From an uncultured delta proteobacterium (GTDB lineage Bacteria > Desulfobacterota > Binatia > UBA9968), in contig CAVUVW010000013.1 of the NCBI GenBank assembly GCA_963745035.1, positions 1,696,001 through 1,760,000 of the forward strand: a stretch of DNA of 64,000 nucleotides. Direction: 5' to 3'. This document shows positions 33,178 through 61,382 of the stretch, piece after piece; positions within the stretch are counted from its first letter, which is position 1; each line of letters opens with the position of its first letter. The translations under genes and the position numbers were made by a program. The notes beneath the pieces were generated by a model. The model worked only from the letters and a program-made list of their open reading frames with translations. It was not told the origin of the DNA and ran no database searches.

Positions 33178-33372
33178 CGGTTGAACGACTGGAACGATTG
33201 AAACAATAGAAACGACTGGAACCCAATTCTTTCCCGTTGACGTTGAACTATTGAACTGCCGTTAATCTGACGGATTGAACGGAGCGCAGCGGTTGAACGG
33301 CTTGAACGGAGTAAAATGGTTGAACGAGCTCTTTTCAGAAACGTTGAACTTTTGAACCTTTGACCGTTGAAT
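33178..33372 (+). repeat. Long TTGAAC block
   Basis: More than 12 ttgaac/tggaac units; 33211-33248 recurs at 34794-34831. Confidence 0.85.
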
Positions 33373-33388
33373 TGCCGCTTAGGCGATC

Positions 33389-33416
33389 TGGACAAATTAG
33401 CTAAATTGGCTATAAT
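33389..33416 (+). promoter_or_regulatory. Sigma70-type promoter with 9-bp direct-repeat operator
   Basis: TGGACA-16 nt-TATAAT; AAATTAGCT/AAATTGGCT tandem lies between the boxes. Confidence 0.6.
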
Positions 33417-33440
33417 GCCCTGCATGAGGGAGACCATCCG

Positions 33441-33791
33441 ATGTCCATGCTCACTTTCAGGAATCGCCAAGGCGCTCTAGTCGACATTCCGACCGTCAAG
33501 GCAACTCAGGTTAAGAACGAGTTCGGCTCGATCCTGGAAAAGGCCACGCGCAGCGGCGCGGTGGCGATTACTCGACACGCCGCGCCAAAGGCCGTGCTGC
33601 TTTCTTACGAAGAATTCGAGTCGCTGGTGCAAATACAATCGCGCACTCTCGAAAATCTCGGCGCCGAATTCGACGATCTGTTGGATCGCATGCAGACCGC
33701 TAAGGCAAAAAAGGGGATGGAATCCGCGTTCCACGCCTCCCCCGCCAAGCTCGGACGCGCGGCCGTCGGGGCCGCCCGTAAACGCCGATAA
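33441..33791 (+). CDS. Phd/YefM family antitoxin (extended)
   Basis: ATQVKNEFGSILE, VAITRH..PKAVLLSYEEFE motifs. Confidence 0.85.
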   Translation: MSMLTFRNRQGALVDIPTVKATQVKNEFGSILEKATRSGAVAITRHAAPKAVLLSYEEFESLVQIQSRTLENLGAEFDDLLDRMQTAKAKKGMESAFHASPAKLGRAAVGAARKRR

Positions 33792-33854
33792 ATACTCGGC
33801 GACACGTTTCTAAGTAAGACGCCTCAGCGAAGCGTCGCCCCAGTTATCCTTGGA

Positions 33855-34499
33855 ATGAGCCCGCCTACCTCGCCGCGCATCTATGTTCTCGCCGGCGTTA
33901 ACGGCGCGGGCAAGAGCAGCATTGGCGGCGCGGCGTTTCGCGCTGCCGGCGCCCACTATTACAATCCCGACGAAGCCGCGCGCACATTGATGGCCGCTAA
34001 TCCGGCGCTAACTCAAGCAGACGCCAATAGCGCCGCCTGGCGCAAGGGCGTGGAACTCTTGACGCGGGCTATGAGAGAGCGCAAAAACTTTGCCTTCGAA
34101 ACCACGCTTGGCGCCAACACGATCCCCGGTCTGCTCATGGAGGCCGCATCACAAGGTGTCGAGCTTTACGTGTGGTACGTGGGCCTTTCCAGCCCCGAGC
34201 TTCATATCGAGCGCGTACGAGCGCGAGTCCGACGGGGCGGCCACGACATCGCTGCCGAGCATATCCGCCGGCGCTATGAACATAGCCGCTTAAACCTCAT
34301 CGATCTCTTGCCACGGATCACGGCCTTGCGCGTTTACGACAACAGCGCAGACGCAGATCCCGCCGCCGGCAAGACCCCCAAGCCCAAGCTGGTGTTGCAC
34401 ATGGAAAATGGAAAGATTCTCAATCGCCGCAATCTCAGGAGCACGCCGAACTGGGCCAAACCCATCGTCGCCGCCGCGCTCAAGCTCACGGCGCCCTGA
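33855..34499 (+). CDS. Zeta-toxin-like P-loop kinase/ATPase
   Basis: AGVNGAGKS Walker A; FAFETTL, RV..RV.RGGHDI, IRRRY and VYDNS motifs. Confidence 0.85.
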   Translation: MSPPTSPRIYVLAGVNGAGKSSIGGAAFRAAGAHYYNPDEAARTLMAANPALTQADANSAAWRKGVELLTRAMRERKNFAFETTLGANTIPGLLMEAASQGVELYVWYVGLSSPELHIERVRARVRRGGHDIAAEHIRRRYEHSRLNLIDLLPRITALRVYDNSADADPAAGKTPKPKLVLHMENGKILNRRNLRSTPNWAKPIVAAALKLTAP

Positions 34500-34587
34500 G
34501 AAAACTTAGGACAAATCTTTTGAGAATTAGATTTAGAACATTCACTGGCTTTGACGCCGACGCGAATTTTGACGAATTATCTTCTGA

Positions 34588-34880
34588 ACTGTTGCCTGTT
34601 GCCTCGTGCCTTACGCCTGTTTGTTGGAAGTCATAAAGGGGACAAGCTACTTTTTTCTCATTTCGCGGCCGACCGGGCGAGCGCGATTGCTTCCGACCAG
34701 ATTGAACGTCTGGAACCATTGAAACAGCTGGAACTATTGGAACCACTCTCCTTTGTAAAACGTCTTGAACGGAGCGCAGCGGTTAACGGCTGGAACGACT
34801 GGAACCCAATTCCTTTCCGTTGACGTTGAACGTTTGAACGGTTGAACCTTGAACAAGTTCTTTCGTACTGTTGCCTATTT
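34588..34880 (+). repeat. CTGTTGC and TTGAAC blocks with a short transposase scrap
   Basis: ctgttgcctgttgcctcgtgccttacgcct; gcgattgcttccgaccag (WSEAIA on - strand); many ttgaac units. Confidence 0.8.
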
Positions 34881-34885
34881 GAGAA

Positions 34886-35374
34886 CTAATCAATGGTGAT
34901 CCGTCGTCCAAAGAAAGTATCAAAAGCGATGGCCGGAGTGTGTGAGTTTAAGGGATCATCATTGGCACTGAAAGCGCGCAACTCGAACCTTCCTTCCATT
35001 TCTTCACACCTTTCAGCGAATCTCATCACGATATCGAGTCTGGCGATCTGCGCTGGTGGCACACCGCCGTTCACGGGAGTTTCAGCAAAGTTGAAGTCGA
35101 GGCTCCTCGCCTTCGCGTCCCGAGCGCCGGCTTTCCTCCAAACGCCTTGTATGTGGCTGAAGCCAAACGCCCTTTGGGCGGAGCTGGTAACGTGAAATGC
35201 GCCATCCTGTGACAATGTCCAGAGGCTTTGAGTGCCACTGCCTTCGACGACAAGATAAGTGCCGGAGAAACAGCCGCCCTGTGATCCCGTATCGCGCGAG
35301 CTAGCGATAGTGGAATTCACTAGCAAGGGCGGGATTGATAACACAAAGGCCAGGATTATAAGCCGGAATTTCAT
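34886..35374 (-). CDS. Exported hypothetical beta-rich protein
   Basis: GGAGG RBS; signal peptide MKFRLIILAF. Confidence 0.6.
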   Translation of the reverse strand: MKFRLIILAFVLSIPPLLVNSTIASSRDTGSQGGCFSGTYLVVEGSGTQSLWTLSQDGAFHVTSSAQRAFGFSHIQGVWRKAGARDAKARSLDFNFAETPVNGGVPPAQIARLDIVMRFAERCEEMEGRFELRAFSANDDPLNSHTPAIAFDTFFGRRITID

Positions 35375-35609
35375 AGTGCCCTCCATGTTGCGGTTACTTG
35401 TGAGAACTCCCGGAAACGCACGCGCTTCTAACACAGGATGCGCCCTCAAACAAATCCGGGACAGCGTTGGATAAATGAGCAATAGCCGCCGTCACCCGCC
35501 CCTTTACGAACCACAAACTCCTGACCGCGATCGATCCGACCAGCGAATCTCTTGACGATCGCACGTTGACCCAATGGCTATCCGATTAACGATCGGCCGC
35601 GAGGCCTAG

Positions 35610-35746
35610 AGCGTAGCGGTTGAACGGCTTGAACGTTTTTAACCGGCTTCAGTATGGTTAGCGGTTGAACGTCTGGAAACAATTGAAAGCATTGGAACCG
35701 AGCTGTTGTTCCGATGACGTTGAACTTTTGAACCGTTGAACTTTGA
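35610..35746 (+). repeat. TTGAAC block
   Basis: gagcgtagcggttgaacggcttgaacg ... gttgaacttttgaaccgttgaactttgac. Confidence 0.8.
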
Positions 35747-35829
35747 CCGCGCCGCGACGCTGATCGCGGTAGTATTCGAATTGTGAACCGGCTATTGACA
35801 ACGGCTTCGTGGCCACTTTATACGAAGCT

Positions 35830-36843
35830 ATGTTTACCTGGTTTGCTTTGGTTTTACCCATTCTGCTGGCGACGCAAAGCATCCTATCAACCGTTCATGC
35901 GCTAGAGCGCCATATTCATGCCCGAGCGGGGGGATCCAGCTCGCAACAACTGCCCTTGATCGTTGCGAAAGATCTCGGGCTATTCGAGAAATATGGTTTG
36001 AATCTTGATCTACTCGAGATCCGCGGCGGTTCACTGTTGATGCAGGCGCTGATCGGTCAGAGCGTAAATTCTGCCGACGTCGGCGCGCAGGCACCCATTC
36101 GAGCCATTCTATCCGGGGCTAACGTTGTGATCACCGGCGGACTTCTCAACAAGACGCTCTACAAGTTTGTAACCCGCAAAGAGATCCGCAAGCCCTCGGA
36201 TCTTCGCGGCAAAAAAGTAGGCATCGTCAATTTTGGTGGAGCCAACGAATTCAATATTCTTATGGCACTGAAAGCGTGGGGCATGCCGCCGGATTCCGTG
36301 AAGCTGCTGCCATCGGGCGGCAGCTTGGCGAGACTTGCGGCCATGGAGGTAGAGGGAGGACTCGATGCAACGATTATCCCTTACGGCGAAGCGGCGGCGG
36401 CAGCTAAAAAAGGCTTTAATGTCTTGGCCGATTTAAGCGAACTGATGGAGGAGTCTCCCGAAAAGGTTTTCATCGCCGACCGCTTATTCATCGCCAAGAA
36501 ACGCGACAATGCCAAGCGATTTTTCCGTGCCGTGAGCGAATCTATTCACATACTGAGAAGTCAGCCTGAGCTAAAAGGAAAAGTTGTTCCCATCATCGTA
36601 AAGTGGCTAAGAATTCCGACAAAACTCGCCGAGGAAGCATACGACATACATCACAAAATCTTTGCTTTTCCTCCGCGTGTCGGCCGCAGGGGCTTACAAG
36701 ACGTTCTTGAAATCATCCAACGCGAACCCCGGAGCGCTAAAGATGACTTGAGATTGAGTCGTTTCGTGGACGAAAGTATACTCGACGAGCTGGAGAAAGA
36801 AGGATTCTTCAAAAATCTGACGGACAAAATCTCGCAAAAATGA
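35830..36843 (+). CDS. ABC substrate-binding protein, NMT1/THI5-like
   Basis: GLFEKYGL, DLRGKKVGI, ARLAAM and FVDESILDELEKEGFF motifs. Confidence 0.85.
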   Translation: MFTWFALVLPILLATQSILSTVHALERHIHARAGGSSSQQLPLIVAKDLGLFEKYGLNLDLLEIRGGSLLMQALIGQSVNSADVGAQAPIRAILSGANVVITGGLLNKTLYKFVTRKEIRKPSDLRGKKVGIVNFGGANEFNILMALKAWGMPPDSVKLLPSGGSLARLAAMEVEGGLDATIIPYGEAAAAAKKGFNVLADLSELMEESPEKVFIADRLFIAKKRDNAKRFFRAVSESIHILRSQPELKGKVVPIIVKWLRIPTKLAEEAYDIHHKIFAFPPRVGRRGLQDVLEIIQREPRSAKDDLRLSRFVDESILDELEKEGFFKNLTDKISQK

Positions 36844-36914
36844 GCCGGACCGGCGCCACATTCCAGGGAACCAAGATTTACCGGAATTACTCAACTGGTT
36901 GTTGAAAAGATTCC

Positions 36915-37080
36915 AGGCTGTTCAAAAAGGTCCAGATGCGAGGCGCGCGAGAAAATGGAGTGTTGGAGTATTGGAGTATTGCCTCCTAAACCCATCACTC
37001 CACCACTCCGTCACTCCAGTACTCCGATCCGGATGAGGCGATCGAGCGCAACGAAGCGGGTGGGCCTTTTTCAACAGTCT
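36915..37080. mobile_element. MITE-like element, copy 2
   Basis: Same arms as 22790-22942; core of inverted TGGAGTAT/CACTCC octamer repeats. Confidence 0.65.
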
Positions 37081-37116
37081 GTTAACTGCCGCTGAACGAA
37101 GAAAGGGAGGTTTCAA

Positions 37117-37992
37117 GTGACATCGAGAATCAAACATATCGGAATTATGAGTCAGACGCCGCCTCGTCTGTTTAAATTCTATGAATGCCTGTTCGACTTT
37201 AGGACAGACGTGCGTACCCCGGATCAAGAGCGTGAGCGCGCTAAAGCACTCGGCTACAGAGTACTGCACTCCGGCCGCGTTGCCAGTGCCTTCGCTCGGA
37301 CGGTGATCGCGAGCGACGGCAACATCGGCGTTGCCTTCAATCAGCGTCGTCCCGGCTATCCTGGAGGTCTCGATCATTTCGGCATGACCGTCGATGACAT
37401 TGGCGGAGTGCTCAAAAGAATCAAGGAAAAATATCCCTCGGTCGGGGCGGTGAAACGCCCTGCCGGCCGGCCATTTGTCGATTACAGCAGTCACGACCCC
37501 GAGGGAAACATTTTCGACATCGCAGAACCAGGCAAAAAGCAACTCGTGGGTGTTTTTTCAGAGGCGGAAAACAAACGCCCGCGCCACATCAAACATTTCA
37601 CGATTCGCGCGATGAATCCGAGGGCCTTGGCTCAATTTTACACTGACGTTTTTGAATTCAAGCAGGAAGAAAAGGCGCTGGAGGACCCGCATTTTTATCT
37701 CACCGACGGCACGGTGACGATGGTTATTGCGCCCTATAAAATCGAGGATTACCTCGGCACCGAGCACAAGCGCCCAGGCTTCGATCACCTCGGTTTTGCA
37801 GTCGAAGATTTGCAAGCTTTCAATGCCGATGTGGAACTGTTGGCGAAGCACGACCCGGAATATCTGGCGCCCAAACCTCCGAACGTCGAATCCGAATACC
37901 AAGTCATCATGGACCTGCTTCGGACCTGCAGGCATGGGCAGCACCAAATGTGCGACCCGGAGGGAAACCTGATCGATATTTCTGTCGGCTAG
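37117..37992 (+). CDS. VOC/glyoxalase family protein (two domains)
   Basis: IKHIGI, GLDHFG, DPEGN, IKHF, GFDHLGF and DPEGN motifs; GGGAGG RBS. Confidence 0.85.
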   Translation: MTSRIKHIGIMSQTPPRLFKFYECLFDFRTDVRTPDQERERAKALGYRVLHSGRVASAFARTVIASDGNIGVAFNQRRPGYPGGLDHFGMTVDDIGGVLKRIKEKYPSVGAVKRPAGRPFVDYSSHDPEGNIFDIAEPGKKQLVGVFSEAENKRPRHIKHFTIRAMNPRALAQFYTDVFEFKQEEKALEDPHFYLTDGTVTMVIAPYKIEDYLGTEHKRPGFDHLGFAVEDLQAFNADVELLAKHDPEYLAPKPPNVESEYQVIMDLLRTCRHGQHQMCDPEGNLIDISVG

Positions 37993-38009
37993 GATTCGTT
38001 CCAGCCGGT

Positions 38010-38177
38010 CGTTCAAGGTTTCAGGTTCAAAGTTCAAGGTAAAACGGCGGGCGATGCCGGTTGTTCGTCAGTCTTAAACGTTTTGAACGGAGCGGAGCGG
38101 TTGAACGGTTTGAACGATCTTGAACGGTTGTCCTTGACGTTGAACGTTGAAGTTAGCGATTGAACGATTTGAACGGG
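38010..38177. repeat. Short inverted (GTTCAA) block followed by a TTGAAC block
   Basis: gttcaaggtttcaggttcaaagttcaagg, then ttgaacggagcggagcggttgaacggtttgaac. Confidence 0.8.
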
Positions 38178-38369
38178 CTCATTCTGGTGCTTTCGGCGGC
38201 AATATACCTACAAATCCCCGGGGGAAAATCCGACAATTCCTCGCAATATCTTCACTTTCATTCTGCCGACGCCCGATCTTTCTCGCTTTTATTTTCGTAT
38301 CTTTCTGGTGGCATATGATTTGCCGCTTTACTGGAATGTCCATCTTACAAAAAATGGAAGGGAGTCCTT

Positions 38370-38537
38370 ATGTGTTATAACTGTGGATGTCAAAAGCCGG
38401 ACGATGACATGGGCAATCCGAAGAACATTACCAACAAGACATTCGAAGAAGCGGCGAAGGCTTCCGGCAAGAAATCCGACGAAGCGAAAAAGAATGTCAA
38501 GGAATTGTTAGAGAAACAGCAAGGCGCGCAGCGATAA
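38370..38537 (+). CDS. Small protein with N-terminal CxxCxC, 55 aa (MCYNCGCQKPDDDMGNPKNITNKTFEEAAKASG...)
   Basis: Hand-translated; GGGAG RBS; below the ORF-track cutoff. Confidence 0.7.
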   Translation: MCYNCGCQKPDDDMGNPKNITNKTFEEAAKASGKKSDEAKKNVKELLEKQQGAQR

Positions 38538-38655
38538 TTCCAATCGATACAACTCCGTCGTGTGGACCGGGGTTGTTTTCATAGTGCGAGCGTTTCCGAC
38601 CAGCGAATCGCTTGATCGAACGTTGAACGGCCGCTCTCCGATCAACGATTGGAAC

Positions 38656-38719
38656 CGCGCCAAGCGATGAAACCATTGGAACGTTTGCAACCGTTCTTCC
38701 GAACGTTTTGAACGGAGCG
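38656..38719 (+). repeat. 64-bp direct repeat, left copy
   Basis: Matches 39369-39432 with 2 mismatches. Confidence 0.85.
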
Positions 38720-38795
38720 GCAGCGTGGCGGAAAGATTCGAATCGAACTTTATTTTGTCCGATCCGGGCTGGGCTTGCCGGCAGGATTGAGCGAT

Positions 38796-39125
38796 CTACG
38801 GCCAGTCGTCGCCGTTAGAGTAACGCGACCAATCCGACCTTTTGAAAGCATCAATAAATGCGGGAACAAAGGCTTCGATCCGCTGCTGCGGAGCGATCAC
38901 ACGCAGAACCTTGACCTGCGAAGGATGTCGCATCTGGCGAACATTGTGAGCAAATCCCGTATCCCTCGTGAAGCAAAGTTCGTAATCGACGGCGACTTGG
39001 CGATACAATCTCCCGTTGTCGATGCCCTTCAATTTCAGATTATTTACCGAGTCAACCTCGTGACCGAGGAGCTTCAGAGCAGCTGCCAGAGACTCAGGCA
39101 TGTTCTCGTCGAGAAGGATTTTCAC
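38796..39125 (-). CDS. DUF5615 PIN-like toxin (VapC45-type)
   Basis: MKILLDENMP, LGHEVDSV, G.DN and FTRD.GF motifs. Confidence 0.85.
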   Translation of the reverse strand: MKILLDENMPESLAAALKLLGHEVDSVNNLKLKGIDNGRLYRQVAVDYELCFTRDTGFAHNVRQMRHPSQVKVLRVIAPQQRIEAFVPAFIDAFKRSDWSRYSNGDDWP

Positions 39126-39327
39126 TTGGCGCCAGCAAGTCGGAATGGGCTAATTCTTCCAACGTACCACGAACTGCATCCTCCGTGAGACTGGGATACT
39201 CCTTCACGATCTCGCTGATCGTCATTCCCGCGGCCAGCCATTCCAACAGAAGCGCAACCGCGATGCGGGTGTCGCGCACGCGAGGTTTTCCTCCAAGATG
39301 GTCGGCATCCGATACGATCCACCCCAT
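39094..39327 (-). CDS. DUF433 antitoxin
   Basis: GGKPRVRDTRIAV, LAAGMT.SEI..EYPSLT.DAV motifs. Confidence 0.88.
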   Translation of the reverse strand: MGWIVSDADHLGGKPRVRDTRIAVALLLEWLAAGMTISEIVKEYPSLTEDAVRGTLEELAHSDLLAPSENPSRREHA

Positions 39328-39368
39328 TGCTTTCTCCTCACTTCGGAATTTATCACATAATAGATGCG

Positions 39369-39455
39369 CGCGCCAAGCGATGAAACCATTGGAACGTTTG
39401 GAACCGTTCTTCTGAACGTTTTGAACGGAGCGAAGCGGTTGAACGGCTTGAACGT
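39369..39455 (+). repeat. 64-bp direct repeat, right copy, within a TTGAAC block
   Basis: cgcgccaagcgatgaaaccattggaacgtttggaaccgttcttctgaacgttttgaacggagcg. Confidence 0.85.
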
Positions 39456-39475
39456 GTTTCAGTAGCCTGTCCGTC

Positions 39476-40531
39476 CTACCGCGGCGGCAGCGGATCTGCC
39501 CCCGTGATCTTTTTCATCAGCTCGACGACGTCCGGGTCGCGCGGCAGCTCCTTCAGCGCCTTTTCCTGCATCTCCCCCGTCAGCGGAGCGGCCTCGTTGC
39601 CGACGAGATTTTTGTAAGACACGTGGAATTCGGGATCGTTGAAAGTCCGGCGCATCGCTTCGCGGAGAATCTGGACCCGATCGGGTGCCGTGCCCGGCGG
39701 GAGGAAAAAAGGCGCGCCCACCAGACGAAACGCGCGGTGCATTCTTAGAAGTTTATACTCCCTCTCCGACTTGGCGAAAGTTTCCAGGTCGGGAAGATGA
39801 GGGAACTGCGGGTGCTTGTCTCCCTTCGGGACTTCGATCACGGCGTGGAAGTCCGCCAGCTTTTTTTCGATCCAATCTTTATTCCGCGTCAAGACGTTAT
39901 GAATCGGCGTTGCCCGGGCATCGACCTCGCCTTGGACAAACGCCACGTCGACCTCGCGGCCCGAATAGCCGACGATGAACTTGGGCTCCTTCAACCCGAT
40001 CAAATAAGCGAAGAGCCGCCCGTCGACATAAGTGGTAAAACCGACGGACTGGTCGCCGATTCGGATCCCCGGCTGGTTGCGCAGCTTTTCGAGCGTGTTG
40101 AGGCCCGCATCTCTGCGCGTGGCAAAGATCTGTTGCGTGTCGCTGCGCGGCGATCCGAGGTAGATGAATTTGTCGAGGTCGTAGCGCACGCCGACGGTGT
40201 CGAGAATACCGTTCGTGATGATGCCGCCCGATCCAGAGCCGATGGTCAAGCCGTCCGCTTTGGCGATCGCGTACATGTGATTGGCCTGGGTCCGGCCTCC
40301 GGCGCCCGGCATATACTCGATGACGATGCGCGGATTGCCGGGGATATACTTCTCGAGAAATGGCGCCATCGATCGTACGTAGCCGTCTCCCGTTCCGCCG
40401 GGAGCTCGGCTCTGAATGATGGTGATCGTTTTTCCCTGATAGAACGGCGCCTGCGCCACCGCGGTGCCGAGGTGCGGCAACAAGAGCGCAAACATCAGCG
40501 CAAAGCAGAACGAACGTTTTTGAAAAATCAT
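39476..40531 (-). CDS. TctC/Bug family substrate-binding protein
   Basis: FYQGKT, APGGTGD, YMPGAGG, DGLTIG, GYSG and GEVD motifs. Confidence 0.88.
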   Translation of the reverse strand: MIFQKRSFCFALMFALLLPHLGTAVAQAPFYQGKTITIIQSRAPGGTGDGYVRSMAPFLEKYIPGNPRIVIEYMPGAGGRTQANHMYAIAKADGLTIGSGSGGIITNGILDTVGVRYDLDKFIYLGSPRSDTQQIFATRRDAGLNTLEKLRNQPGIRIGDQSVGFTTYVDGRLFAYLIGLKEPKFIVGYSGREVDVAFVQGEVDARATPIHNVLTRNKDWIEKKLADFHAVIEVPKGDKHPQFPHLPDLETFAKSEREYKLLRMHRAFRLVGAPFFLPPGTAPDRVQILREAMRRTFNDPEFHVSYKNLVGNEAAPLTGEMQEKALKELPRDPDVVELMKKITGADPLPPR

Positions 40532-54190: not shown

Positions 54191-54916
54191 GGCTGTTTCG
54201 CTTCCGCTAAACGCACTTTCGGATGTGACCGCAACAACGCAAGTCGCTCCTGAGTTTGCGCAGGTGCTTCGCGATCGTCAGCGGCTAAAGCTACAGTGTA
54301 GACGGCCATCGGGGACGGGCCTGCCACAATCGTGGCTCGAATGCTGCTGAGCAATGTCCTGATTTCCCGCTCAGTGATATCGTCGGCAAAAACCACTTGA
54401 AGGTGCACTCGACCCGGCTCCGGGCCGCTCCCCGCGTCCGACAGTGTCTGATAGAGGAATGAAGGAGCGACCGAAGCCTGCCATATCGTAGCCGCGGCAA
54501 GCAGGACGATCGTCGCAGTCTGCGCGGCCAGTGCCCAACGAAATAAAGACGGTGTCTCCTGAAAAACAAGCCGGATTTTTTCGATCCACTCGCGAACACG
54601 AATCCGCCAGCGCTCCGGGGCGGCCGACGCGCTCGGCACGGTCGATGCGCTCCATTAAGCGCGCAAGATGCTCCGGTGAGGCCGTCCTCGCAGCCTCTTC
54701 GGAGCTGCGGACTGCGGTGGCGATGGACTGGCATCGCACGACCTCGTCCGCGCAGCTCTGACATCTCAGAATGTGGCGAGCGACAAATTCGTGTTCGTGA
54801 CCTTCCAAAGTACCGTTTACGTACCAGGGCAGGATCTCCCACACTTTTTGGTGGTCGTTCCCATCGGATGGATCACTCGGGTCTCGCATATCGTTTAGAT
54901 TCCTTCTTCTGATCAT
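54187..54916 (-). CDS. Zinc-finger (zf-HC2) anti-sigma factor; frameshift near 54635
   Basis: LPWYVNGTL, H...C..C (HILRCQSC); TM helix and YQTLS periplasmic domain in the next frame. Confidence 0.85.
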
Positions 54917-55491
54917 GATCCTTTCGACTCAGCGGCGAACAGTGTAGCCAGCCGTCGGCGGGCATGGAACATTCGCGTCTTGACCGTGTTCACAGGGCAC
55001 CCGACAATCTTCGCGATCTCCGCGTAGGACAGGTCGTGATAGAAGGTTAGCTCCACAACCACCCCTTGCTCAGGAGGCAGGCTGTCAATTGCCCGCGCCA
55101 CAGCGCTCGCCAACTCACGGTGGGCCCAGGCATCCTCAGGACCACTGGACTCGACTCCGGAGGGCTCCGCCTGCCGGAGCTCTGTATCGAACTGAGCAGA
55201 CCGTGCCCGCGCCTTCAGCGCCTTGTAGTGAGCAATGCCCAGGATCCAGGTTGAGAGGCGCGAGGTTCCATTAAAGCGCGACGCGGTCTGCCACACCACC
55301 ATCATCACGTCGTTCAGCGCTTCCTCAGCGATTTCTCGCTGGCGGATTAATTTCCACAAGTAGCGGTAGACCACGGGTGAATAGCGGTGATAGAGGGTCT
55401 CGAACGCTTGGCGGTCTCGTTCGACCACGCGCCGCATAAGGTTCAGCTCGTCCTCTAAGGCGGAGGGTTGCATGGGAGCCTTTCCAGGCAT
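54913..55491 (-). CDS. ECF RNA polymerase sigma factor
   Basis: AFETLY.RY, AEE.LNDVM..VW, LSTWI.GIA, LSYAEIA and PVNTVKTRMFHAR motifs; start uncertain. Confidence 0.92.
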   Translation of the reverse strand: MPGKAPMQPSALEDELNLMRRVVERDRQAFETLYHRYSPVVYRYLWKLIRQREIAEEALNDVMMVVWQTASRFNGTSRLSTWILGIAHYKALKARARSAQFDTELRQAEPSGVESSGPEDAWAHRELASAVARAIDSLPPEQGVVVELTFYHDLSYAEIAKIVGCPVNTVKTRMFHARRRLATLFAAESKGS

Positions 55492-55740
55492 GAGTTGGCC
55501 CACGGTGGGGCCATTCGCTCCCGCATGCACAGCGCCCCTCAATGTAGGGTAAACGTATTGCCCCAGCAAGTAAAAACCTCGTAGATGGGGCGTTATCTCA
55601 TCCAATGCGATGGATATAACTCTGCCCTCCTACTCCCCCTCCGTCAGTTTCGATGTCTACACGTATATCCCTGAAACCGACGCCTAGGTTCTCTATCGAC
55701 AGTGTTTTAATGAAACAGCTGTCCACTTATTTGTGGAGCC

Positions 55741-56035
55741 AAGAGGGCGGGTCTCAATCCGCCCCTACAAATCCCTATTTTTTTGCGACCTTTGCGTTCT
55801 TTGCGGTCAACCCTCCGCATCCGAATCTTCTATCTATATGATCCTTGTGCCCTCCTTCAAAAAATAGGATTAGAGAAAGATCTCTCACTTCGTTCGAGAT
55901 GACAGCATTGCCATTCCGAGCGGACGCGAGGAATCTTTCCCAGGCATTTTCATTATCCGTGGGCGAGCGTAAACTCATGTCACACTTTGTGGTCAAATCT
56001 CTTATCCGCTTTGGTTGCGGCTTTGCCGCGCTAAG
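55741..56035. repeat. Nested cluster of REP-like palindromes and 9-mer repeats
   Basis: agggcgggtctcaatccgcccctac (GTAG-type on - strand); tttgcgacctttgcgttctttgcggt; agatctctcacttcgttcgagatgaca / gccattccgagcggacgcgaggaatct; tttggttgcggctttgccgcgct. Confidence 0.65.
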
Positions 56036-56112
56036 TCCTTAGAGCCTCAACTTTGCCGGTGAATTTGCCAGCGTAAGCTTCAGCAGGCTCGCGCAGTGCG
56101 TAGGTTTCGTCT
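56036..56112 (-). pseudogene. Y1 transposase 3' remnant
   Basis: TYALREPAEAYAGKFTGKVEALR on the - strand. Confidence 0.6.
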
Positions 56113-56156
56113 GTTTCTAGCACTTCGCGATGCATCGCTTTGATTCCAAGCTCATT

Positions 56157-56362
56157 TCGATGTTTCGAGAATTCCCTAAACGTGGAAGTCCCCACCTCCG
56201 CATTGTATTTGCCGTTAACGATTTGAACGGAGCAAAGCGATTGAACGATTTGAACTGAGTGAAATGGTTGAACGAGTTCTCTCTACTGTTGCCTGTTGCC
56301 TCGTGCCTCACGCCTATTCGTCAACGACTTGAACTGAGTGAAACGGCTGAACGATTGGAACT
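56157..56362 (+). repeat. GAATTC palindrome, TTGAAC and CTGTTGC blocks
   Basis: 56284-56321 is identical to 58568-58605. Confidence 0.85.
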
Positions 56363-56448
56363 CTTACCTCCGGACTGTTGAGCACTTGACGAATTTCGCT
56401 CTCCGGGGATACATACGTGCATAGGAACAACTCAATGGAGGAACTCAC

Positions 56449-56856
56449 ATGGAGACCAAGGCGAAGCCCGTTCCGAAAACTGCGGTGCAGGTGGTCAACA
56501 CCAACTGGCAGCCCGGTGAGCGCAATGTCAAACGGCTCGCGCGCAGCGAGCTGCTCAATATCCTGCTGCACCACTGGGATACGGGCGGTGAGGTGGCGCT
56601 ACACCATCACACCGACGGCGATGCTACGTGGGTCGTCGTCGGGGGCGAAGTGACGTTCTATGGCGAAGACGACCAGGTCATCGCCAAAGCAGGGCCGCGA
56701 GAAGCTGTCCTGATTCCGCGCAATACGATGTACTGGTTCACCAATTCGGGAACCGCCCCGCTCGAGATGTTCCGCATCTCGGCGAAAGTCGGCGGCATCA
56801 GCGAAGGGGACGATCGCATCTACCACCAGCGAGTAACTGACGTGACCCAGCCATAA
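56449..56856 (+). CDS. Cupin domain protein
   Basis: GGEVALHHH...DA.W.V.GGE..F, IPRNTMYWF.N.G motifs; GGAGG RBS. Confidence 0.8.
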   Translation: METKAKPVPKTAVQVVNTNWQPGERNVKRLARSELLNILLHHWDTGGEVALHHHTDGDATWVVVGGEVTFYGEDDQVIAKAGPREAVLIPRNTMYWFTNSGTAPLEMFRISAKVGGISEGDDRIYHQRVTDVTQP

Positions 56857-57052
56857 TCTGGCTGCAGTATTGCTGGGCGATCGGCGCGCGCTTGTTCGAT
56901 GGCGACAATCACTCGCAATGTGACAACGTCTGCAGCAGGACTTCCCCTAACTCCTCATTCGAGAAACTTGCCGCCACCCGCACCGGCTCCTTTCTGAACG
57001 GTTGGAAGCCCGCTTCATCTCCTCGGGAGCCGCCGTTTCGCAGACGGGTGAA

Positions 57053-57207
57053 CGAAACAGAGTGAACGCGGCTTTAAACGATTTGAACGGAGCGCGGCGG
57101 TTGAACGGCTGGAACGTTTTGAACGAGCTCTTTCTGCTCACCCCTCACGACTCACTCCTCACTTCTTCTTCTTACTGTTGCCTGTTGCCTCGCGCCTGTT
57201 GCCTATT
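57053..57207 (+). repeat. TTGAAC, TCACnCC and CTGTTGC block
   Basis: ttgaacggagcgcggcggttgaac; ctcacccctcacgactcactcctcac; tcttactgttgcctgttgcct. Confidence 0.85.
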
Positions 57208-57222
57208 AGTTATCATTTGGCC

Positions 57223-57516
57223 TTAGCGCTCCGCGGGGGGTTCGCTCCTGTGCTGTCTTTCTGGTGGTTTCACAACAATGGTCTTTCGCTGCTCCTCTGT
57301 TAATTGGTCCGCCCTGACGAACCCAAGTGCTTCGTACTGGCGAACACAACTACTTACCTGATTGCTGACCATGATGGCCGACGTAATACCGCGCGCCATG
57401 CCGGAACACTCAACGGTTGTACCATTTTTGAGATTCACGAGTAGAACAAATGGCGAGGCACACCCAGCGAACAAAAAAGCTGCAGCAATTACGAAAGAAA
57501 ATCTACTCGTCCTCAT
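57223..57516 (-). CDS. Small lipoprotein
   Basis: Lipobox FAGC; ECSG...CVRQYEALGF. Confidence 0.65.
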   Translation of the reverse strand: MRTSRFSFVIAAAFLFAGCASPFVLLVNLKNGTTVECSGMARGITSAIMVSNQVSSCVRQYEALGFVRADQLTEEQRKTIVVKPPERQHRSEPPAER

Positions 57517-57879
57517 GTATGCTTAATTAACTGATTGGTTGAAGGATTGTATTGCCGCGCTAAAACAGGTCAAGGGGAAAGTTGGCTGCGTTACCGTGTT
57601 AGATGAAAGAACGCCCCTGAGCGGTTTCTGGCGTGCGTTGCCGCGGCCCGTCAGATGATAAATCACACCGGGAAAATTCTAATCGTAGGGGACGCACCAT
57701 TGCACCGCCTTCTTTTATCGGATTGTCGGACGAAATGTGTTATTGCAAGACTTGACCCGCTACTTTTCTTCTCGCTTCGCGGCCGGCCGGCTTGAACGGC
57801 TTGAATTCTCGGCACGGAGTGCTTCTCGCACTCTGCCTGACCGTTTTTCAATGAAAAAGTAGCCTCTCCCCTTTTCTCT

Positions 57880-58368
57880 CTATTGTACTTTCGGCTCAGA
57901 CGGCAGTCCCTGACCCGTTTCCACTTTCGGCGTTGCTGGAGCTTTTGTCAGGGCTAAAATATTGCTCAGTACTTCTTCTATCATTTCTTGTGGAGATAAC
58001 CGGGTGAGCGATGTGTGGTAGGAGTTGCCGACAGCCAGAGGTTGATTATGAACGGGCTCTCTCAGTGTAACAGTGAGCTCAAGCAGATACAGCGTGATGT
58101 CCCACATCCACTTGTCTACGTAAGTGATATACGCGTCAGTCTTGTAGGAAGAGGGCGGCATTTCCGGCCCCGCCACGGAGTGGTAACCTTTCAGTGAGAG
58201 ATTGTCGCTGATCATCTGGTGGAGTCCTTGCTTATCTCGCGGCTGATGCACCACGTAGAAAGATTTAACTCGGCTGAGATCGGCGCCGGGCATCAGAGTC
58301 GCCGTCGCTCGGTTTATACAACCCGACACCGCTATACCGACTAAAAGGAACAAAGAGATGGATTTCAT
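57880..58368 (-). CDS. Lipoprotein, hypothetical
   Basis: Lipobox VSGC; TYVDKWMWDITLYLLEL; GGAGG RBS. Confidence 0.75.
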   Translation of the reverse strand: MKSISLFLLVGIAVSGCINRATATLMPGADLSRVKSFYVVHQPRDKQGLHQMISDNLSLKGYHSVAGPEMPPSSYKTDAYITYVDKWMWDITLYLLELTVTLREPVHNQPLAVGNSYHTSLTRLSPQEMIEEVLSNILALTKAPATPKVETGQGLPSEPKVQ

Positions 58369-58404
58369 ATACGCCTCCGTAAGCCAATTTACGCGCCATT
58401 CACG

Positions 58405-58850
58405 GGGTCGGGACCAGGCTATGTCCTTCCATCATCACCGGTTTCGTTCCAGAGGAAAGCGTTTTGACGCCTTAGAGCCTCATTTTCACCGGCAAATTTA
58501 AGCCCGTGTGCGGATAAATCCGACGTTGAACGTTTGAACGATTGAACCGTTGAACGAATTCTTTTCTTACTGTTGCCTGTTGCCTCGTGCCTCACGCCTA
58601 TTCGTTGGCTCGCGCAGCGCGTAACTTCCATCGGCTTCGACTTCCGATGTGCGAAGTTGGTGCTCGCTTCTAAACGACTTGAACGGAGCGAAGCGGTTGA
58701 ACGACTGGAACAACTTGAACTGGCCCCGTTTTAAGCCAAGCTCGCTTTTCACCTTCTCAACAAAAGACCGACTTCCAACCGCGATTGCTTCCGACCAGCG
58801 ATCGTCGCGGACCGGTAAGCCATTCTCCAGTCCTCGCTCAACCACTGAGC
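58405..58850 (-). pseudogene. Y1/REP-associated tyrosine transposase 3' remnant split into three collinear pieces by repeat blocks
   Basis: VERGLENGLPVRDDRWSEAIAVGSRSFVEKVKSELGLK | repeat | EVEADGSYALREP | repeat | GLKFAGENEALRRQNAFLWNE. Confidence 0.65.
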
Positions 58851-58976
58851 GCTGTTCTCTAAAACGTTTCTTGGTTCTTAACGTCTTGAACGGAGCGAAG
58901 CGATTGAACGATTTGAACGGCTTGAACGAATCAAGTTTACGTTGAACGGCTTGAACGTTTTGAACGGGCGTCAGTC
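58745..58976 (+). repeat. 232-bp direct repeat, left copy
   Basis: Ungapped match to 61151-61382; last 136 bp differ at one position. Confidence 0.9.
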
Positions 58977-59005
58977 TTAGTTAGGTTGGACGTGCTCCAG
59001 GCGCC

Positions 59006-60844
59006 TCAAGCAATGGCCGCCGCGCTCGCTGGTGTGAACGGATGTCCACCGTTAAGGCTGAAAGCTCGGACTATGGCGTCAATCTCCGAACCGTGCAGGA
59101 CCTCTTTTTCGAGCAACTTCTCGGCAACTTCATGTAGCAGTCGAAGATTGGTCGTTAATAAGTCCTTGGCCCGATAGTAGCTCTCGTCGATAATGCGCCT
59201 GATCTCGGCGTCGATCTCAATGGCAGTGCTCTTGGAATAGTCTGTTTTCTGAGTAAAATCTCTTCCCAGAAAAATCTCTTCTTCTTTTTTGCCGAAAGTC
59301 ATTGGCCCTAGCTTTTCGCTCATTCCCCATTCACAGACCATCCGGTGCGCCAGATCCGTGGCTTTCTCGATATCGTTCCCCGCGCCCGTCGTTATGTGCT
59401 CGAGCACAAGCTCTTCGGCCACTCGGCCGCCAAACAGGATGACCAAATTATTGAGCAGATATTCCCTGGGATAAGTATGTTTTTCGTCCATAGGCAGTTG
59501 CTGCGTAAGACCCAAAGCCATGCCGCGGGGAATGATCGTCACTTTGTGGATTGGATCGGAGCCCGGCAGTAGCTTCGCCACCAAAGCATGGCCGGCTTCA
59601 TGATAGGCCGTATTGCGCTTTTCTTCGTCGCTGATAATCATGCTGCGCCGCTCGGCGCCCATGATGACCTTGTCTTTGGCTAGCTCGAAGTCGACCATGT
59701 TGACCTTTTCCTGATCATTTCGAGCGGCCAACAAAGCTGCTTCATTTACGAGATTCTCCAAGTCCGCGCCGGTAAGCCCGGGCGTGGAGCGCGCCAGTAT
59801 GCTCACATCCACGTCCGCTGCCAAGGGAACCTTGCGGGAGTGCACGTGCAAGATACCTTCTCGCCCTTTTATGTCCGGTCGCGGTACGACAACGTGCCGA
59901 TCGAACCGCCCAGGGCGGAGCAACGCGGGATCCAATACGTCGGGCCGGTTGGTCGCGGCGACAAGAATAACTCCTTCGTTGGATTCGAATCCATCCATTT
60001 CCACCAGCAGTTGGTTCAACGTCTGTTCTCGCTCGTCATTGCCGCCACCAAAGCCAGCTCCACGGTGACGCCCGACGGCGTCGATTTCGTCGATAAAGAT
60101 GATGCAAGGCGCCTGCTTTTTACCCTGAACGAACAGATCACGAACACGAGATGCGCCGACGCCGACGAACATTTCCACGAAATCGGAACCGCTGATGCTA
60201 AAGAACGGCACTCCGGCTTCGCCCGCGATGGCACGAGCCAACAGGGTCTTGCCAGTTCCCGGGGCGCCCACGAGCAAACACCCTTTGGGAATTCTGCCGC
60301 CAAGTTTCGTGAATTTTTTCGGATCTTTTAGGAATGCGATGATCTCTTGCAGATCATCTTTGGCCTCATCCACGCCGGCGACGTCGCCAAAGGTTATGCG
60401 GTGTTGATTCTCCGTAAGTAGCTTAGCGCGGCTCTTGCCAAAGGACATCGCCTTACCACCGCCCACCTGCATCTGGCGCATAAAAAATATCCACACACCG
60501 AGCAGAAGCAGCATGGGAAACCAGTTAAGCAGTAGCACGATGTACCACGGCGAGTCGTCACCTGGTTTCGCGGCGATTTTCACCTGCTTGCCCCGCAATG
60601 ACTTCACCAACTCCGGATCATCCGGCGCAAAAGTTCCGAACGGTTCGCCGTTCTTGTATTTGCCCTGAATATTCTGTCCTTGGATCACGACCTCTCGAAC
60701 GTCGCCGCGCTCCACGCTCGCCGTAAATTCGCTGAAAATAATTTCCGGTGCGCGCGCGTATTGTTTGTTAAAAACGCTGAAAACCCCAAACAAAACGAGC
60801 ACCACGACCAGCCCAACTGCAATACGTTTTGATGATAGATTCAC
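59006..60844 (-). CDS. ftsH: ATP-dependent zinc metalloprotease FtsH
   Basis: Two TM helices; [38 protein letters not shown] and HEAGH motifs; GTG start with GGAG RBS. Confidence 0.97.
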
Positions 60845-61150
60845 GAAATTGCTCCGTTCAGGGGAAACACCCCCTCCCGCACCGCTGGTGTTGATACTAG
60901 CTCTTTCGGGCACAGAAGGATACCATTGATCGTTGGCACCGATCCTTCTAAAACTTCGACCCAATTGCATTCTCTCTCAGCCGATCTCTATCGGCCCACC
61001 AAGAGAGAATTCACGGCCGAGTCCTAATTTGCCAAACGATTTGAACGAAGCGAGCGATTGAACGTTTAGAACGGCTGGAACGGTCCTCGGTTTATGGGGT
61101 GGGCGCAACGATTGCAAAAGAGCAGTTAGGGTCAGACTTCTACGACTCAA

Positions 61151-61382
61151 CTTTTCACCTTCTCAACGAAAGGCCGACTTCCAACAGCGATCGCTTCGGA
61201 CCAGCGATCATCGCGACGTGCTAATCCCTTCTCCAAACCTTGCTCGACCACTGAGCGCTGTTCTCTAAAACGTTTCTTGGTTCTTAACGTCTTGAACGGA
61301 GCGAAGCGATTGAACGGTTTGAACGGCTTGAACGAATCAAGTTTACGTTGAACGGCTTGAACGTTTTGAACGGGCGTCAGTC
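61151..61382 (+). repeat. 232-bp direct repeat, right copy (transposase remnant plus TTGAAC block)
   Basis: RDDRWSEAIAVGSRPFVEKVKS on the - strand, then a repeat block near-identical to 58841-58976. Confidence 0.9.

Follow-up and report, generated by a model that had tools for sequence, protein, structure and literature searches.

The features of sedentary chromosomal integron arrays and of CALINs are known from the IntegronFinder literature, and the core consensus of attC is GTTRRRY. BIMEs and REP sequences are based on palindromes of 20-40 nt. The pdif modules of Acinetobacter plasmids are XerC/D-bounded and possess 28-bp XerC-XerD sites in alternating orientation, and in the minimal mobile elements of Neisseria conserved flanks serve for the exchange of gene cassettes by homologous recombination. 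IS200/IS605-family elements and their non-autonomous derivatives (PATEs) are characterized by a Y1 HUH transposase and strand-specific behaviour. The REP/RAYT systems of Enterobacteria and Pseudomonas are the subject of two papers (PMC5581495, PMC3184786).

The locus described here is a hypervariable island of approximately 103 kb in the metagenome-assembled genome of a soil bacterium of the uncultured class Candidatus Binatia, part of which lies in the window (the whole 64,000-nt stretch analysed, from the 1.97-Mb contig C13). Short gene units follow one another along the island, with mosaic, BIME-like repeat blocks between them, and the island appears to swap gene units much as an integron does, but without the integron enzyme or sites. 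At its left edge, core synteny with the related genomes G031, G032 and G033 (79-83% identity) stops at window position 2235-2266 in all three. The TTGAAC clusters are on the plus strand in 32 of 33 cases in the left arm (window 5618 to 64078) and on the minus strand in 10 of 11 in the right arm (window-relative 78274 to 105291), and 44 of the 78 clusters on the contig are concentrated in about 100 kb of the island. Genes are encoded on both strands, whereas the repeat blocks of an arm share one orientation; the right arm contains mostly small co-oriented ORFs. The cargo consists of accessory metabolic genes, many toxin-antitoxin pairs and four-helix-bundle "IVP" genes.

Like sedentary integrons and CALINs, the island is an array of roughly 100 kb with short units, many toxin-antitoxin pairs, one-way inter-unit repeats, units that are common to relatives in another order, and one arm of small co-oriented ORFs. 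In contrast to them, it possesses neither an adjacent IntI nor attC-type imperfect palindromes, its genes lie on both strands, some with promoter-like hexamers, its unit borders are imprecise, and its repeats are tandem 7-9-nt arrays and transposase debris. BIMEs/REP and RAYT systems share with it short intergenic motifs in genome-dispersed mosaics, a RAYT-class Y1 HUH gene and, in its relatives, a Y1 element bounded by inverted GGTCGGACCAAG / CTTGGTCCGACC termini; the island differs from BIMEs/REP in the regional concentration and strict polarity of its clusters, in motifs built as tandem arrays of short period with a 7-nt core between them, and in blocks that bracket gene units turning over between species. 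The pdif modules are likewise discrete, include toxin-antitoxin modules, have short repeated borders and are reshuffled among replicons without a transposase of their own, but the sites of the island are chromosomal and are long, directly oriented mosaics. The island and the Neisseria elements would have in common that units are replaced one by one through homologous recombination, no dedicated recombinase being involved, although the homology of the latter lies in core genes at fixed loci and would here lie in portable blocks within one array. With IS200/IS605 elements and PATEs the island has in common a Y1 HUH transposase, strand specificity and remnants retaining one element end; unlike those elements, its remnants are inter-unit debris and its units have no conserved left and right ends between genomes.

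Repeat modules and matched brackets

The blocks combine modules of the X, W, Y-Z and palindrome types with arrays of 7- and 8-mers and with decayed copies of the 3' end of a Y1 (IS200/RAYT-type) transposase element (Table 1). The X element (45-50 nt) is formed by TTGAACGNN 9-mers around a GCGNAGC core, which is invariant apart from N (0.4 bits vs 1.2-2.0 bits at adjacent positions) and appears as the doubly changed variant GTGAAAC in two copies. All 18 copies found in the window with the strict pattern are on the plus strand. Genome-wide there are 55 copies, 21 in C13 1,696,000-1,806,000 and 34 outside the island, nine of the latter adjoining a REP-like hairpin, CCTCCCCCGCGACGCGGGGGAGG or a close variant. 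The palindrome module is frequent in the right arm, where its orientation is reversed.

Table 1. Coordinates of brackets, units and repeat modules (window positions)
Feature	Position	Strand	Details
Island left arm	2270..64000	.	continues past window end to about C13 1,801,400 (~41 kb beyond)
Bracket 1	33211..33256 / 34794..34839	+	46 nt, 91%; around Phd (33441-33791) and zeta-like gene (33855-34499)
Phd+zeta unit	33380-34506		recurs in relatives
Bracket 2	38656..38719 / 39369..39432	+	64 nt, 97%; around DUF5615 and DUF433
DUF5615 gene	38796-39125	-	Pfam; inside bracket 2
DUF433 gene	39094-39327	-	Pfam; inside bracket 2
Bracket 3	43443..43498 / 45512..45567	+	56 nt, 95%; around 43558-44676 (-) and isochorismatase 44654-45301 (-)
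HpaB unit	45762..47350	+	gene 45885-47324; Pfam; recurs in relatives
Indel segment	47523..48744	.	small minus-strand ORFs 47594-47821, 47923-48156
Bracket 6 (additional)	48775..48839 / 49494..49558	+	65 nt, 91%; around isochorismatase unit
Isochorismatase unit	48852-49470		recurs in relatives
Bracket 4	56284..56321 / 58568..58605	+	38/38 nt identical; wider match 56280-56321 / 58564-58605
Bracket 5	58745..58984 / 61151..61390	+	240 nt, 92%; around ftsH (59006-60970, -)
Bestrophin-like unit	61569..62698	-	gene 61598-62458; Pfam; recurs in relatives
TPR unit	62860-63699		recurs in relatives
X module, representative	47481..47522	+	TTGAACG 9-mers around GAGCG-N-AGCG
Y-Z module, representative	45617..45760	+	GTTGAAC 8-mers, GAGTTCTTT, CCTCACG heptads, CTTCTTCTTA, CTGTTGCC heptads
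Y-Z module, other copies	48553-48672, 58524-58605, 61420-61516, 62719-62860		repeat comparison, TRF
Palindrome module	48396..48422; second copy 56163-56189	+	TTTCGAGAATTC(C/T)CGAAACGT
Largest Y1 remnant	58394..58917	-	3' part of 267-aa Y1 (PF01797) transposase gene with right terminus
Smaller Y1 remnants	29190-29354, 31386-31509, 47363-47465, 56034-56363, 61168-61323	-	translations, alignment
MITE-type hairpin element	36893..37084	.	between NMT1-like and glyoxalase genes

The preliminary description had listed five gene units between closely matching intergenic segments, and all five pairs (brackets 1-5) were found in the sequence where it had placed them. That the pairs match by more than chance is shown by blastn against the whole 7.43-Mb genome, in which the partner was the best match for 10 of the 10 bracket members by wide margins: 62 bits vs at most 30 for the next match (bracket 1), 112 vs 47-53 (bracket 2), 89 vs 45-51 (bracket 3), 74 vs 54 (bracket 4) and 342 vs 74-78 (bracket 5). 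An additional pair, bracket 6, has a marginal lead (91 vs 87 bits). The unique linker of bracket 1 has no further copy anywhere in the genome by blastn. The left copy of bracket 2 is a W module followed by the left half of X as far as the GGAGCG core, and in the right copy the X module runs on intact to 39455. The left copy of bracket 3 consists of GTTGAAC 8-mers and a short hairpin, GCCGTTGATCTGACGGC, which is present in the centroid fold (z = -2.2). Bracket 4 encloses a cupin gene (56449-56856) and two ORFs without a Pfam match, and further repeat blocks lie between its two copies; the left copy is a CTGTTGCC/CCTCACG heptad block, and the right copy sits within a Y-Z module interrupting a Y1-transposase remnant. 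In bracket 5, the left copy comprises a C-terminal remnant of the Y1 transposase (RWSEAIAVGS..FVEKVKS, minus strand), an X module and 8-mers, and the right copy contains P0002, a 92-aa minus-strand ORF.

Among the cargo names proposed beforehand, Phd, Zeta-like, DUF433, DUF5615, isochorismatase (cysteine hydrolase), cupin and FtsH were recovered with Pfam, but the putative "TctC" gene of bracket 3 and the putative "lipoproteins" of bracket 4 (57223-57516 and 57880-58368) gave no Pfam match at E <= 0.01. Candidate promoter-like hexamers of their own were read from the sequence in at least two units; the HpaB unit carries a candidate sigma-70 promoter-like TTGACA-N17-ATAATT at about 45783-45811. 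The isochorismatase unit of bracket 6 is 619 bp in length, with just 20 nt upstream of the ATG.

For analysis of proximity, C13 1,696,000-1,806,000 was divided into 77 intergenic intervals, 47 of which had any match. The best match lay in the neighbouring interval in 8 of the 47, compared with a mean of 1.2 under free permutation (p = 4e-4) and 2.4 when permuting within each arm (p = 0.008), and at most three intervals away in 19 of the 47, compared with 3.6 expected. The anticipated preference for the adjacent block thus exists as an enrichment, in the form of a graded proximity effect and not of strict adjacency. The same effect could result from local block duplication or gene conversion without gene movement in this genome. 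The alternative that no cassettes move in this genome is considered unlikely; the pairs would then have arisen because BIME-like blocks were duplicated or hopped locally or underwent gene conversion, and the between-species differences in gene order would be ordinary island turnover. The graded proximity effect, the three genes and other blocks inside bracket 4, the independent insertion of X and Y-Z modules even in a pseudogene, and the many further dispersed repeat families present agree with local duplication, whereas the linker of bracket 1, with no other genome copy, does not.

Unit turnover between related genomes

The HpaB, isochorismatase, bestrophin-like, TPR and Phd+zeta units have counterparts with 91-97% nucleotide identity in further species of the genus, differently ordered and on different contigs, compared with 74-80% identity for the flanking core DNA. 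The HpaB unit shows 91-95% identity in G004/G032, G011, G018/G033 and G031; the bestrophin-like unit shows 96% in G031, where it directly follows HpaB. The order in G031 is Phd-zeta, ..., HpaB, bestrophin-like, isochorismatase, unlike that of the window. These comparisons uphold the proposal that the units turn over as units, and they indicate that units are exchanged between related species, although part of the high interspecies identity could have arisen because island segments were transferred as a whole, instead of single units.

In G004/G032, the indel segment is missing between HpaB and isochorismatase, with breakpoints in repeats, and the spacing of these units is about 490 bp vs about 1530 bp here. 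The corresponding joint (47522>48745) was detected weakly in metagenome sequence (X8 and X10) with sides of 31-33 nt; the metagenome joints overall have 19-41-nt sides inside repeats and may stem from other loci or organisms. The assembled metagenome contigs showed neither circles nor empty sites nor excision junctions of this strain. The HpaB unit of G033 lies between two direct copies of a 45-nt sequence, which are its only copies in the G033 genome. The reordered, highly identical units amid diverged core DNA, the block-bounded indel and the unique bracket in G033 speak against an absence of mobility. On the other hand, ftsH has a homologue in G031 (88%) that is not flanked by blocks, so bracket 5 may have formed around a resident gene, which agrees with the reading without mobility.

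Presence/absence breakpoints inside the repeats, which had been proposed as a check on relatives, were thus obtained in the single case of G004/G032. Relative to other genomes, the unit borders vary in position: no crossover motif shared by the unit borders was found, homology with relatives ends variably by genome, and the same unit is flanked by different modules from genome to genome.

Integrase, transposase and homologous recombination as candidate agents

The designation of the locus as an integron-like array is appropriate for its gene units between matched single-polarity blocks but not for its mechanism. Contig C13 encodes no integron integrase and no tyrosine recombinase of any kind (0 of 20 PF00589 matches), and a structural scan for attC-type sites gave 1 site in 110 kb, compared with 6 in 19.2 kb and 7 in 20 kb for the true integron arrays of G014 from the same genus, which use YCTAAC...GTTAGR sites different from the island blocks. 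The TTGAAC motifs are direct, not inverted, repeats, and therefore no R''/R' stem is possible. A true integron is largely refuted. It is very improbable that the island is a true chromosomal integron or CALIN whose strongly diverged attC sites are acted on in trans by the IntI of the genome, even though a bona fide IntI is encoded on contig C6 (TIGR02249, 445 bits; cut-off 265) with GTTCAA/TTGAAC repeats directly upstream of intI, GTTGAAC fits the attC core consensus, and the toxin-antitoxin-rich cargo and the right arm resemble sedentary integrons. The TTGAAC arrays beside intI flank an IVP gene rather than cassettes, the blocks do not fold, and IntI was not found in G004 and G018, though both carry arrays.

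A search for the Y1 family yielded 33 proteins at E <= 0.01, seven with PF01797. The RAYT-class gene P0001 (84.8 bits on NF047646; cut-off 80) lies inside the array on the same strand as all Y1 remnants (for this part of C13, 6 of 6 tblastn HSPs are on the minus strand), and a Y-Z module and an X module (58671-58712) split the largest remnant. The polarity, which is strict over about 60 kb, and the conservation of the GCGNAGC core could be signs of a dedicated enzyme with strand specificity. In such a single-strand site-specific cassette system, which is judged unlikely, a RAYT-type Y1 HUH transposase would cut and join at the X element, the core would fold as a DNA mini-hairpin, and units or blocks would be moved strand-specifically. 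Besides P0001 and the polarity of the clusters, the following features are consistent with it: units are repeatedly followed by remnants of a second Y1 element that include its right terminus, G004 has an intact copy of this element at a distance of 1.6 kb from its HpaB-isochorismatase array, X and Y-Z modules occur as insertions in a Y1 remnant, and the bracket 2 match breaks directly after the X core. GCGNAGC is reported to form very stable mini-hairpins (PMC13037366). However, with nearest-neighbour DNA parameters X folds no better than shuffles (z from -0.02 to -1.2), its distance to the unit borders is not fixed, and one unit has differing flanking modules across genomes. Furthermore, this genome has no intact copy of the 267-aa element, and RAYTs are not known to move genes.

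Gain and loss of units by homologous recombination within the blocks is tentatively taken as the best reading, with a probability slightly short of even. The blocks would act as portable stretches of homology. Two direct blocks would recombine and the unit would be deleted, possibly as a circle with one block; the circle, or transferred DNA carrying a block, could then re-enter at any related block by Campbell-type or homology-facilitated recombination. Re-entry would leave the unit between two near-identical block copies and preserve block polarity, with the gene free to face either way. We infer joining by homologous recombination rather than by a dedicated enzyme: a fixed crossover would account for the imprecise, motif-less borders less well than homologous or illegitimate recombination, and uniform block polarity with mixed gene orientation is expected from recombination between parallel repeats. 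The specific brackets with similarity falling with distance, and the dispersal of the blocks as a genome-wide family, support this reading. The comparisons between genomes may be taken in the same sense, namely the identity of the units relative to the core and their different order in G031, the indel with repeat breakpoints, the unique bracket of the HpaB unit in G033, and the arrays of G004 and G018 in which no integron integrase was found. Against homologous recombination, homologies of 38-64 nt are short for the RecA type.

Separate from the bracket repeats, the MITE-type hairpin element of the window has an MFE of -80.8 kcal/mol (RNA parameters) and 63 blastn matches in the genome, with 81-89% matches in several other genomes.

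Matched repeat brackets in a polar island

In a repeat search of window positions 30000-64000, the five matched repeat pairs (D15, D17, D13, D7 and D10) that the preliminary description had placed around small gene units were all recovered in place, and both this search and TRF presented them as part of larger short-period repeat families, namely 9-mers TTGAACGNN flanking a GGAGCG-N-AGCGG core, 8-mers GTTGAACN, and the heptads CCTCACG and CTGTTGC. Equally close copies are not common elsewhere, as a search of the whole 7.43-Mb assembly gave the bracketing partner as the best match, by a wide margin, for all 10 pair members. A sixth bracket (48775/49494), the lead of which over other copies is marginal, encloses the 619-bp isochorismatase unit. 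Positions 1,696,000-1,806,000 of the contig, C13, were divided by a home-made gene call into 77 intergenic intervals, 47 of which had any match. The best match lay in the adjacent block for 8 of these 47, compared with 1.2 expected under free permutation (p = 4e-4) and 2.4 under permutation within each arm of the array (p = 0.008), and was at most three intervals away for 19 of the 47 (3.6 expected). The expected preference for the adjacent block was therefore present as a graded proximity effect and not as strict adjacency. Bracketing exceeds chance. Of the cargo named earlier, Phd with a zeta-like protein, DUF433 with DUF5615, isochorismatase, cupin and FtsH were confirmed by Pfam, and no Pfam match was obtained for the gene at 43558-44676 or for the two supposed lipoprotein genes. 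Other genes of the region encode NMT1- and TctC-like binding proteins, glyoxalase, HpaB, a subtilase, an ECF sigma factor and a bestrophin-like protein.

The source assembly, in which the window is C13:1,696,001-1,760,000, consists of 28 contigs (92.6% complete, 5.8% contamination), and genes were called by our own rough ORF scoring. Core synteny with three related genomes stops at window 2235-2266, which gives the hypervariable island a length of ~103 kb. More than half of the clusters of three or more TTGAAC/TGGAAC words on the 1.97-Mb contig, 44 of 78, lie there, between 1,701,618 and 1,801,332. The clusters are on the plus strand in 32 of 33 cases up to 1,760,138 and, after a 14-kb gap, on the minus strand in 10 of 11. 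Genes of the left arm lie on both strands, and the right arm carries mainly small ORFs on the minus strand. This polarity switch is not a replication origin or terminus, because GC skew is negative along the whole contig and long ORFs keep their strand bias around 1.765 Mb. An rRNA operon in the ORF-poor centre was also rejected, as Rfam returned only a group II intron, no tRNAs were found, and the gap is occupied by a STAND/PRTase-CE gene with a poor codon score. The neighbours of this gene are an IS3 transposase, an SF1 helicase with an RNase H-like N-terminus and RadC, and the group at the flip resembles a cluster of defence or mobile genes. Additional heptad arrays in both arms share the polarity of the other modules, and a dispersed ~190-nt element, predicted to fold into a long, imperfect hairpin (MFE -80.8 kcal/mol; 63 blastn matches in the genome), lies immediately upstream of genes; in the related genome G031 and in metagenome contigs it directly precedes the isochorismatase unit (Table).

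Table. Positions of the features considered. Plain numbers are window positions; C numbers are contigs of the source genome G000; L numbers are extracted loci (L001 and L002 beyond the window on C13, L036 on C6 of G000); other G numbers are genomes of the same genus.
Feature	Position	Strand	Details
HpaB unit	45762-47350		95% in G031 and G033, 91% in G032 and G011
Isochorismatase unit	48852-49470		97% in G031, 94% in G032
Bestrophin-like unit	61569-62698		96%
TPR unit	62860-63699		97%
Phd-zeta unit	33380-34506		91%
Heptad arrays TTATCCT, CTTTATC	26194-26222, 29451-29479, 16785-16817
Heptad array AAGGATAAAGG	L001:15109-15152		right arm
~190-nt hairpin element	36893-37084, 22763-22942
Island centre			GST, P0001 (RAYT-class Y1), STAND NTPase with PRTase-CE, IS3 transposase, SF1 helicase, RadC, IVP gene
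P0001	L001:1015-1905	-	RAYT class, 84.8 bits on NF047646 (cut-off 80)
STAND-type NTPase gene	L001:3947-7264	-	1105 aa, C-terminal PRTase-CE domain
Right-arm TA components			Phd (two), DUF2283/DUF4258, ParE, MqsA-like/DUF4258, DUF5615
Right-arm PF05635 'IVP' genes			five or six, four-helix bundle
Group II intron	L002:7389-9397	-	right arm; RF02005 76 bits, RF00029 46 bits; internal ORF broken into several short frames
intI	C6:42038-43168 (L036:9038-10168)	-	sole TIGR02249 match over cut-off in G000, 445 bits vs 265
Isolated canonical attC-like sites	C6:34637; C21:134041, 135078, 138963		also on C3, C10 and C19
PF05635 '23S rRNA IVP' genes in inverted TTGAACGNN 9-mer arrays	L051:1444-1964, L052:93-622, L036:3111-3639		near intI, G014 and G000
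G015 counterpart	L053:2334-2853		inverted TTGAACGNN arrays only, without a called gene between

Repeat modules and Y1 transposase remnants

One module of the intergenic blocks, the X element (consensus AACGnnTTGAACGGAGCGnAGCGGTTGAACGnnTTGAACGnnTTGAAC), occurs in 55 copies genome-wide by a strict pattern, of which 21 lie in the island and 34 outside it (on 11 other contigs and the rest of C13), with flanks unconserved beyond ~50 nt. Its core reads GCGCAGC in 26 copies, GCGAAGC in 13, GCGTAGC in six, GCGGAGC in two and otherwise in eight, including GTGAAAC twice, and the central position carries 0.4 bits against 1.2-2.0 at its neighbours. GCGNAGC is known as the motif of 'mini-hairpin DNA' (PMC13037366). 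The X core matches this motif, and nearest-neighbour DNA folding of X gave z = -0.02 to -1.2, not above shuffles; the element, its central base being free, may be an instance of the mini-hairpin in natural use. Nine of the copies elsewhere in the genome (e.g., C11:32586, C17:265457 and C19:122588) are immediately preceded, on their 5' side, by the REP-like hairpin CCTCCCCCGCGACGCGGGGGAGG or a sequence close to it. The modules termed W, Y-Z and palindrome recur in a loose order. Short extragenic motifs, mosaic combinations and genome-wide dispersal, which characterize BIME/REP-RAYT systems, are all found here, together with a RAYT gene, P0001, scoring 84.8 bits on NF047646. The REP unit of such systems is a hairpin-forming imperfect palindrome, for which the corresponding observations on X are the mini-hairpin match and the folding scores above, and their RAYT genes typically stand between inverted REPs.

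A second Y1 family has left debris in the blocks. The 232-240-nt repeat around ftsH and segments containing ...CTTAGAGCC... are what remains of a 267-aa Y1 transposase family and cover its C-terminal ~100 residues, with the minus-strand translation RWSEAIAVGS..FVEKVKSELG...YALREP...GENEAL...W. An unaltered remnant fragment used as a database query retrieved 33 proteins at E <= 0.01, seven of which carry PF01797, and the six tblastn HSPs of the family in this stretch of C13 all have minus-strand orientation. The intact element in relatives is ~925 bp long and has the inverted termini GGTCGGACCAAG and CTTGGTCCGACC in four of the five copies compared, the upstream one being missing in locus L062; the island remnants retain the right terminus. 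GGTC[CG]GACC, once considered as a genome-enriched motif and rejected (65 copies vs ~226 expected), is the terminus of this element. The remnant at 58394-58917 is interrupted by a Y-Z module and an X module at points where other copies and intact proteins run unbroken, and the modules therefore insert, or are copied, independently. Across the genus, 18 of 22 distinct contigs with matches to the 267-aa family carry them on the minus strand, and no contig has them on both strands; the agreement inside contigs fits polar arrays, and the overall minus bias may be an artefact of the search or the assemblies.

Turnover of units between species

The relatives are MAGs of uneven quality, in which unit borders are BLAST ends, and the unpublished genome G005 was counted in tallies only. 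The core flanks are syntenic with G031, G032 and G033 at 74-80% nucleotide identity. Units of the island can be far closer to the same genomes, at 91-97% for the five listed in the Table. Over all shared units, identity spans 73% to 97%, a spread suggesting that units were exchanged within homologous islands on separate occasions. They also stand in a different order, so that gene order is not conserved: contig C50 of G031 carries the Phd-zeta unit, a reversed small ORF, two units found here at window 3.7 and 10.2 kb, and then the HpaB, bestrophin-like and isochorismatase units, and further units lie on other contigs. For 20 kb past the shared core flank, G031, G032 and G033 carry other genes and lack TTGAAC clusters, and no array conserved at this chromosomal site was found. 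Presence/absence breakpoints within the repeats, which had been predicted, were found in one place, where ~1.2 kb between the HpaB and isochorismatase units is absent from G032 with breakpoints in X/W blocks; other unit borders are variable. In G033, a 45-nt direct repeat (C26:21885-21929 and 23553-23597; 91% identical) brackets the HpaB unit, and these are its only copies in the 7.5-Mb genome. Among 22 public metagenome runs listed, 20, from eight studies (soil, rhizosphere, winery), contain 30-69% of the words of window 38001-48000. Assembled contigs of four runs (X1, X5, X8 and X10), in which joints were examined, hold many alternative block-to-block joints, such as 33332>34588, 37086>48852, 47522>48745 and 34847>36909, with sides 19-41 nt inside repeats. 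These joints are compatible with modules joined in other orders somewhere in the samples, and are not evidence of excision in this strain.

Recombination within portable repeat blocks is tentatively favoured as the best explanation, since it would account for the bracketing, for a block polarity that holds whichever way the genes face, for borders that are not sharp and for the turnover of units from species to species. Units could be lost by deletion between direct block copies and gained by Campbell-type or homology-facilitated insertion at blocks. The brackets could also reflect local block duplication or conversion with no gene mobility in this genome, a reading that we consider somewhat unlikely. 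A dedicated single-strand mechanism, with a Y1/HUH enzyme acting at the X core, would suit the strict polarity, the conserved core and the RAYT gene embedded in the island, but a precise mechanism is at odds with homology that ends at different positions from genome to genome, with no common junction motif at the borders of 17 units, with flanking modules of a given unit that differ among G000, G031, G032, G033 and G011, and with an ftsH homologue in G031 (88%) that lacks any blocks; we regard it as unlikely. An IS200/IS605 transposon with cargo, whose left and right subterminal ends would accompany the cargo unchanged, does not fit, as the flanking modules of a unit vary by genome.

Comparison with integrons

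A complete integron requires an adjacent IntI, which a CALIN does not; its attC sites are imperfect palindromes of the form R''(RYYYAAC)-L''...L'-R'(GTTRRRY) that fold as single strands, and its cassettes are mostly promoterless, co-oriented single ORFs. The remark that no integrase or attC was in view holds for the contig, as none of the 20 PF00589 matches in the genome lies on C13 and our pattern-plus-fold attC scan, which passes its positive control, gave one candidate in the 110-kb region, compared with six in 19.2 kb and seven in 20 kb of intI-linked control arrays of G014. In that genome, two intI genes adjoin small-ORF arrays with classical attC sites (YCTAAC...GTTAGR). The TTGAAC motifs have a single orientation only. 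The isochorismatase unit, with its 20-nt leader, and the right arm, with its mostly minus-strand small ORFs, do match the promoterless, co-oriented feature; left-arm genes lie on both strands, and candidate promoter-like hexamers were seen by eye within the conserved HpaB and Phd units. Because attC sites are scarce relative to the genus controls, no integrase adjoins, and the TTGAAC arrays next to intI are not cassette borders, the island is not an integron or CALIN; the proposed integron-like array was not borne out, and we hold that reading to be most improbable. An ordinary integron system is present elsewhere in the same genome, comprising the C6 IntI, beside which lie a lexA gene and a LexA-box-like palindrome, and scattered attC-like sites (Table). 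IntI occurs in 12 of 31 genus genomes at E <= 1e-60, nine of them over the cut-off, and was not found in G004 (the same genome as G032; 92% complete, 10 contigs) or G018 (the same as G033; 80% complete); arrays of the island type are present in both.

Among the bacterial platforms known to store single-gene units and shuffle them, only integrons are well understood. The island would mean the same outcome in an uncultured soil lineage, a ~100-kb store of accessory and TA units exchanged across species with ~77% core identity; unlike an integron, it is composed of BIME-like repeat blocks with one polarity per arm and of debris from Y1 transposases. Should ordinary homologous recombination suffice, dispersed repeats can make a chromosome region a cassette exchange; should a dedicated enzyme act, the island would represent a mobile-gene platform of a new class. 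A fuller proposal is that Binatia possess, besides integrons and unrelated to them, a second platform for gene cassettes. In this strand-polar array, a RAYT-type Y1 HUH enzyme, or another enzyme, would act on single-stranded X (TTGAACGNN iterons, GCGNAGC mini-hairpin) to capture, excise and exchange promoter-bearing units between species, duplicating the flanking block at each insertion; we consider this distinctly unlikely. A search pairing Binatota with integrons returned no literature, the abstracts of work on RAYTs with gene cassettes held nothing on such arrays, and within these two bodies of literature no published description of these repeats was found.

TTGAAC arrays also occur near intI in G014, G015 and G000 as inverted pairs that are not cassette borders, with an IVP gene inside except in G015, where none was called. 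The inverted TTGAACGNN arrays are 35 nt long and 91% complementary, and in the C6 copy of G000, the 9-mers extend into the 3' end of the IVP gene. The IVP gene with its inverted 9-mer arrays resembles a small element that is mobile or processed.
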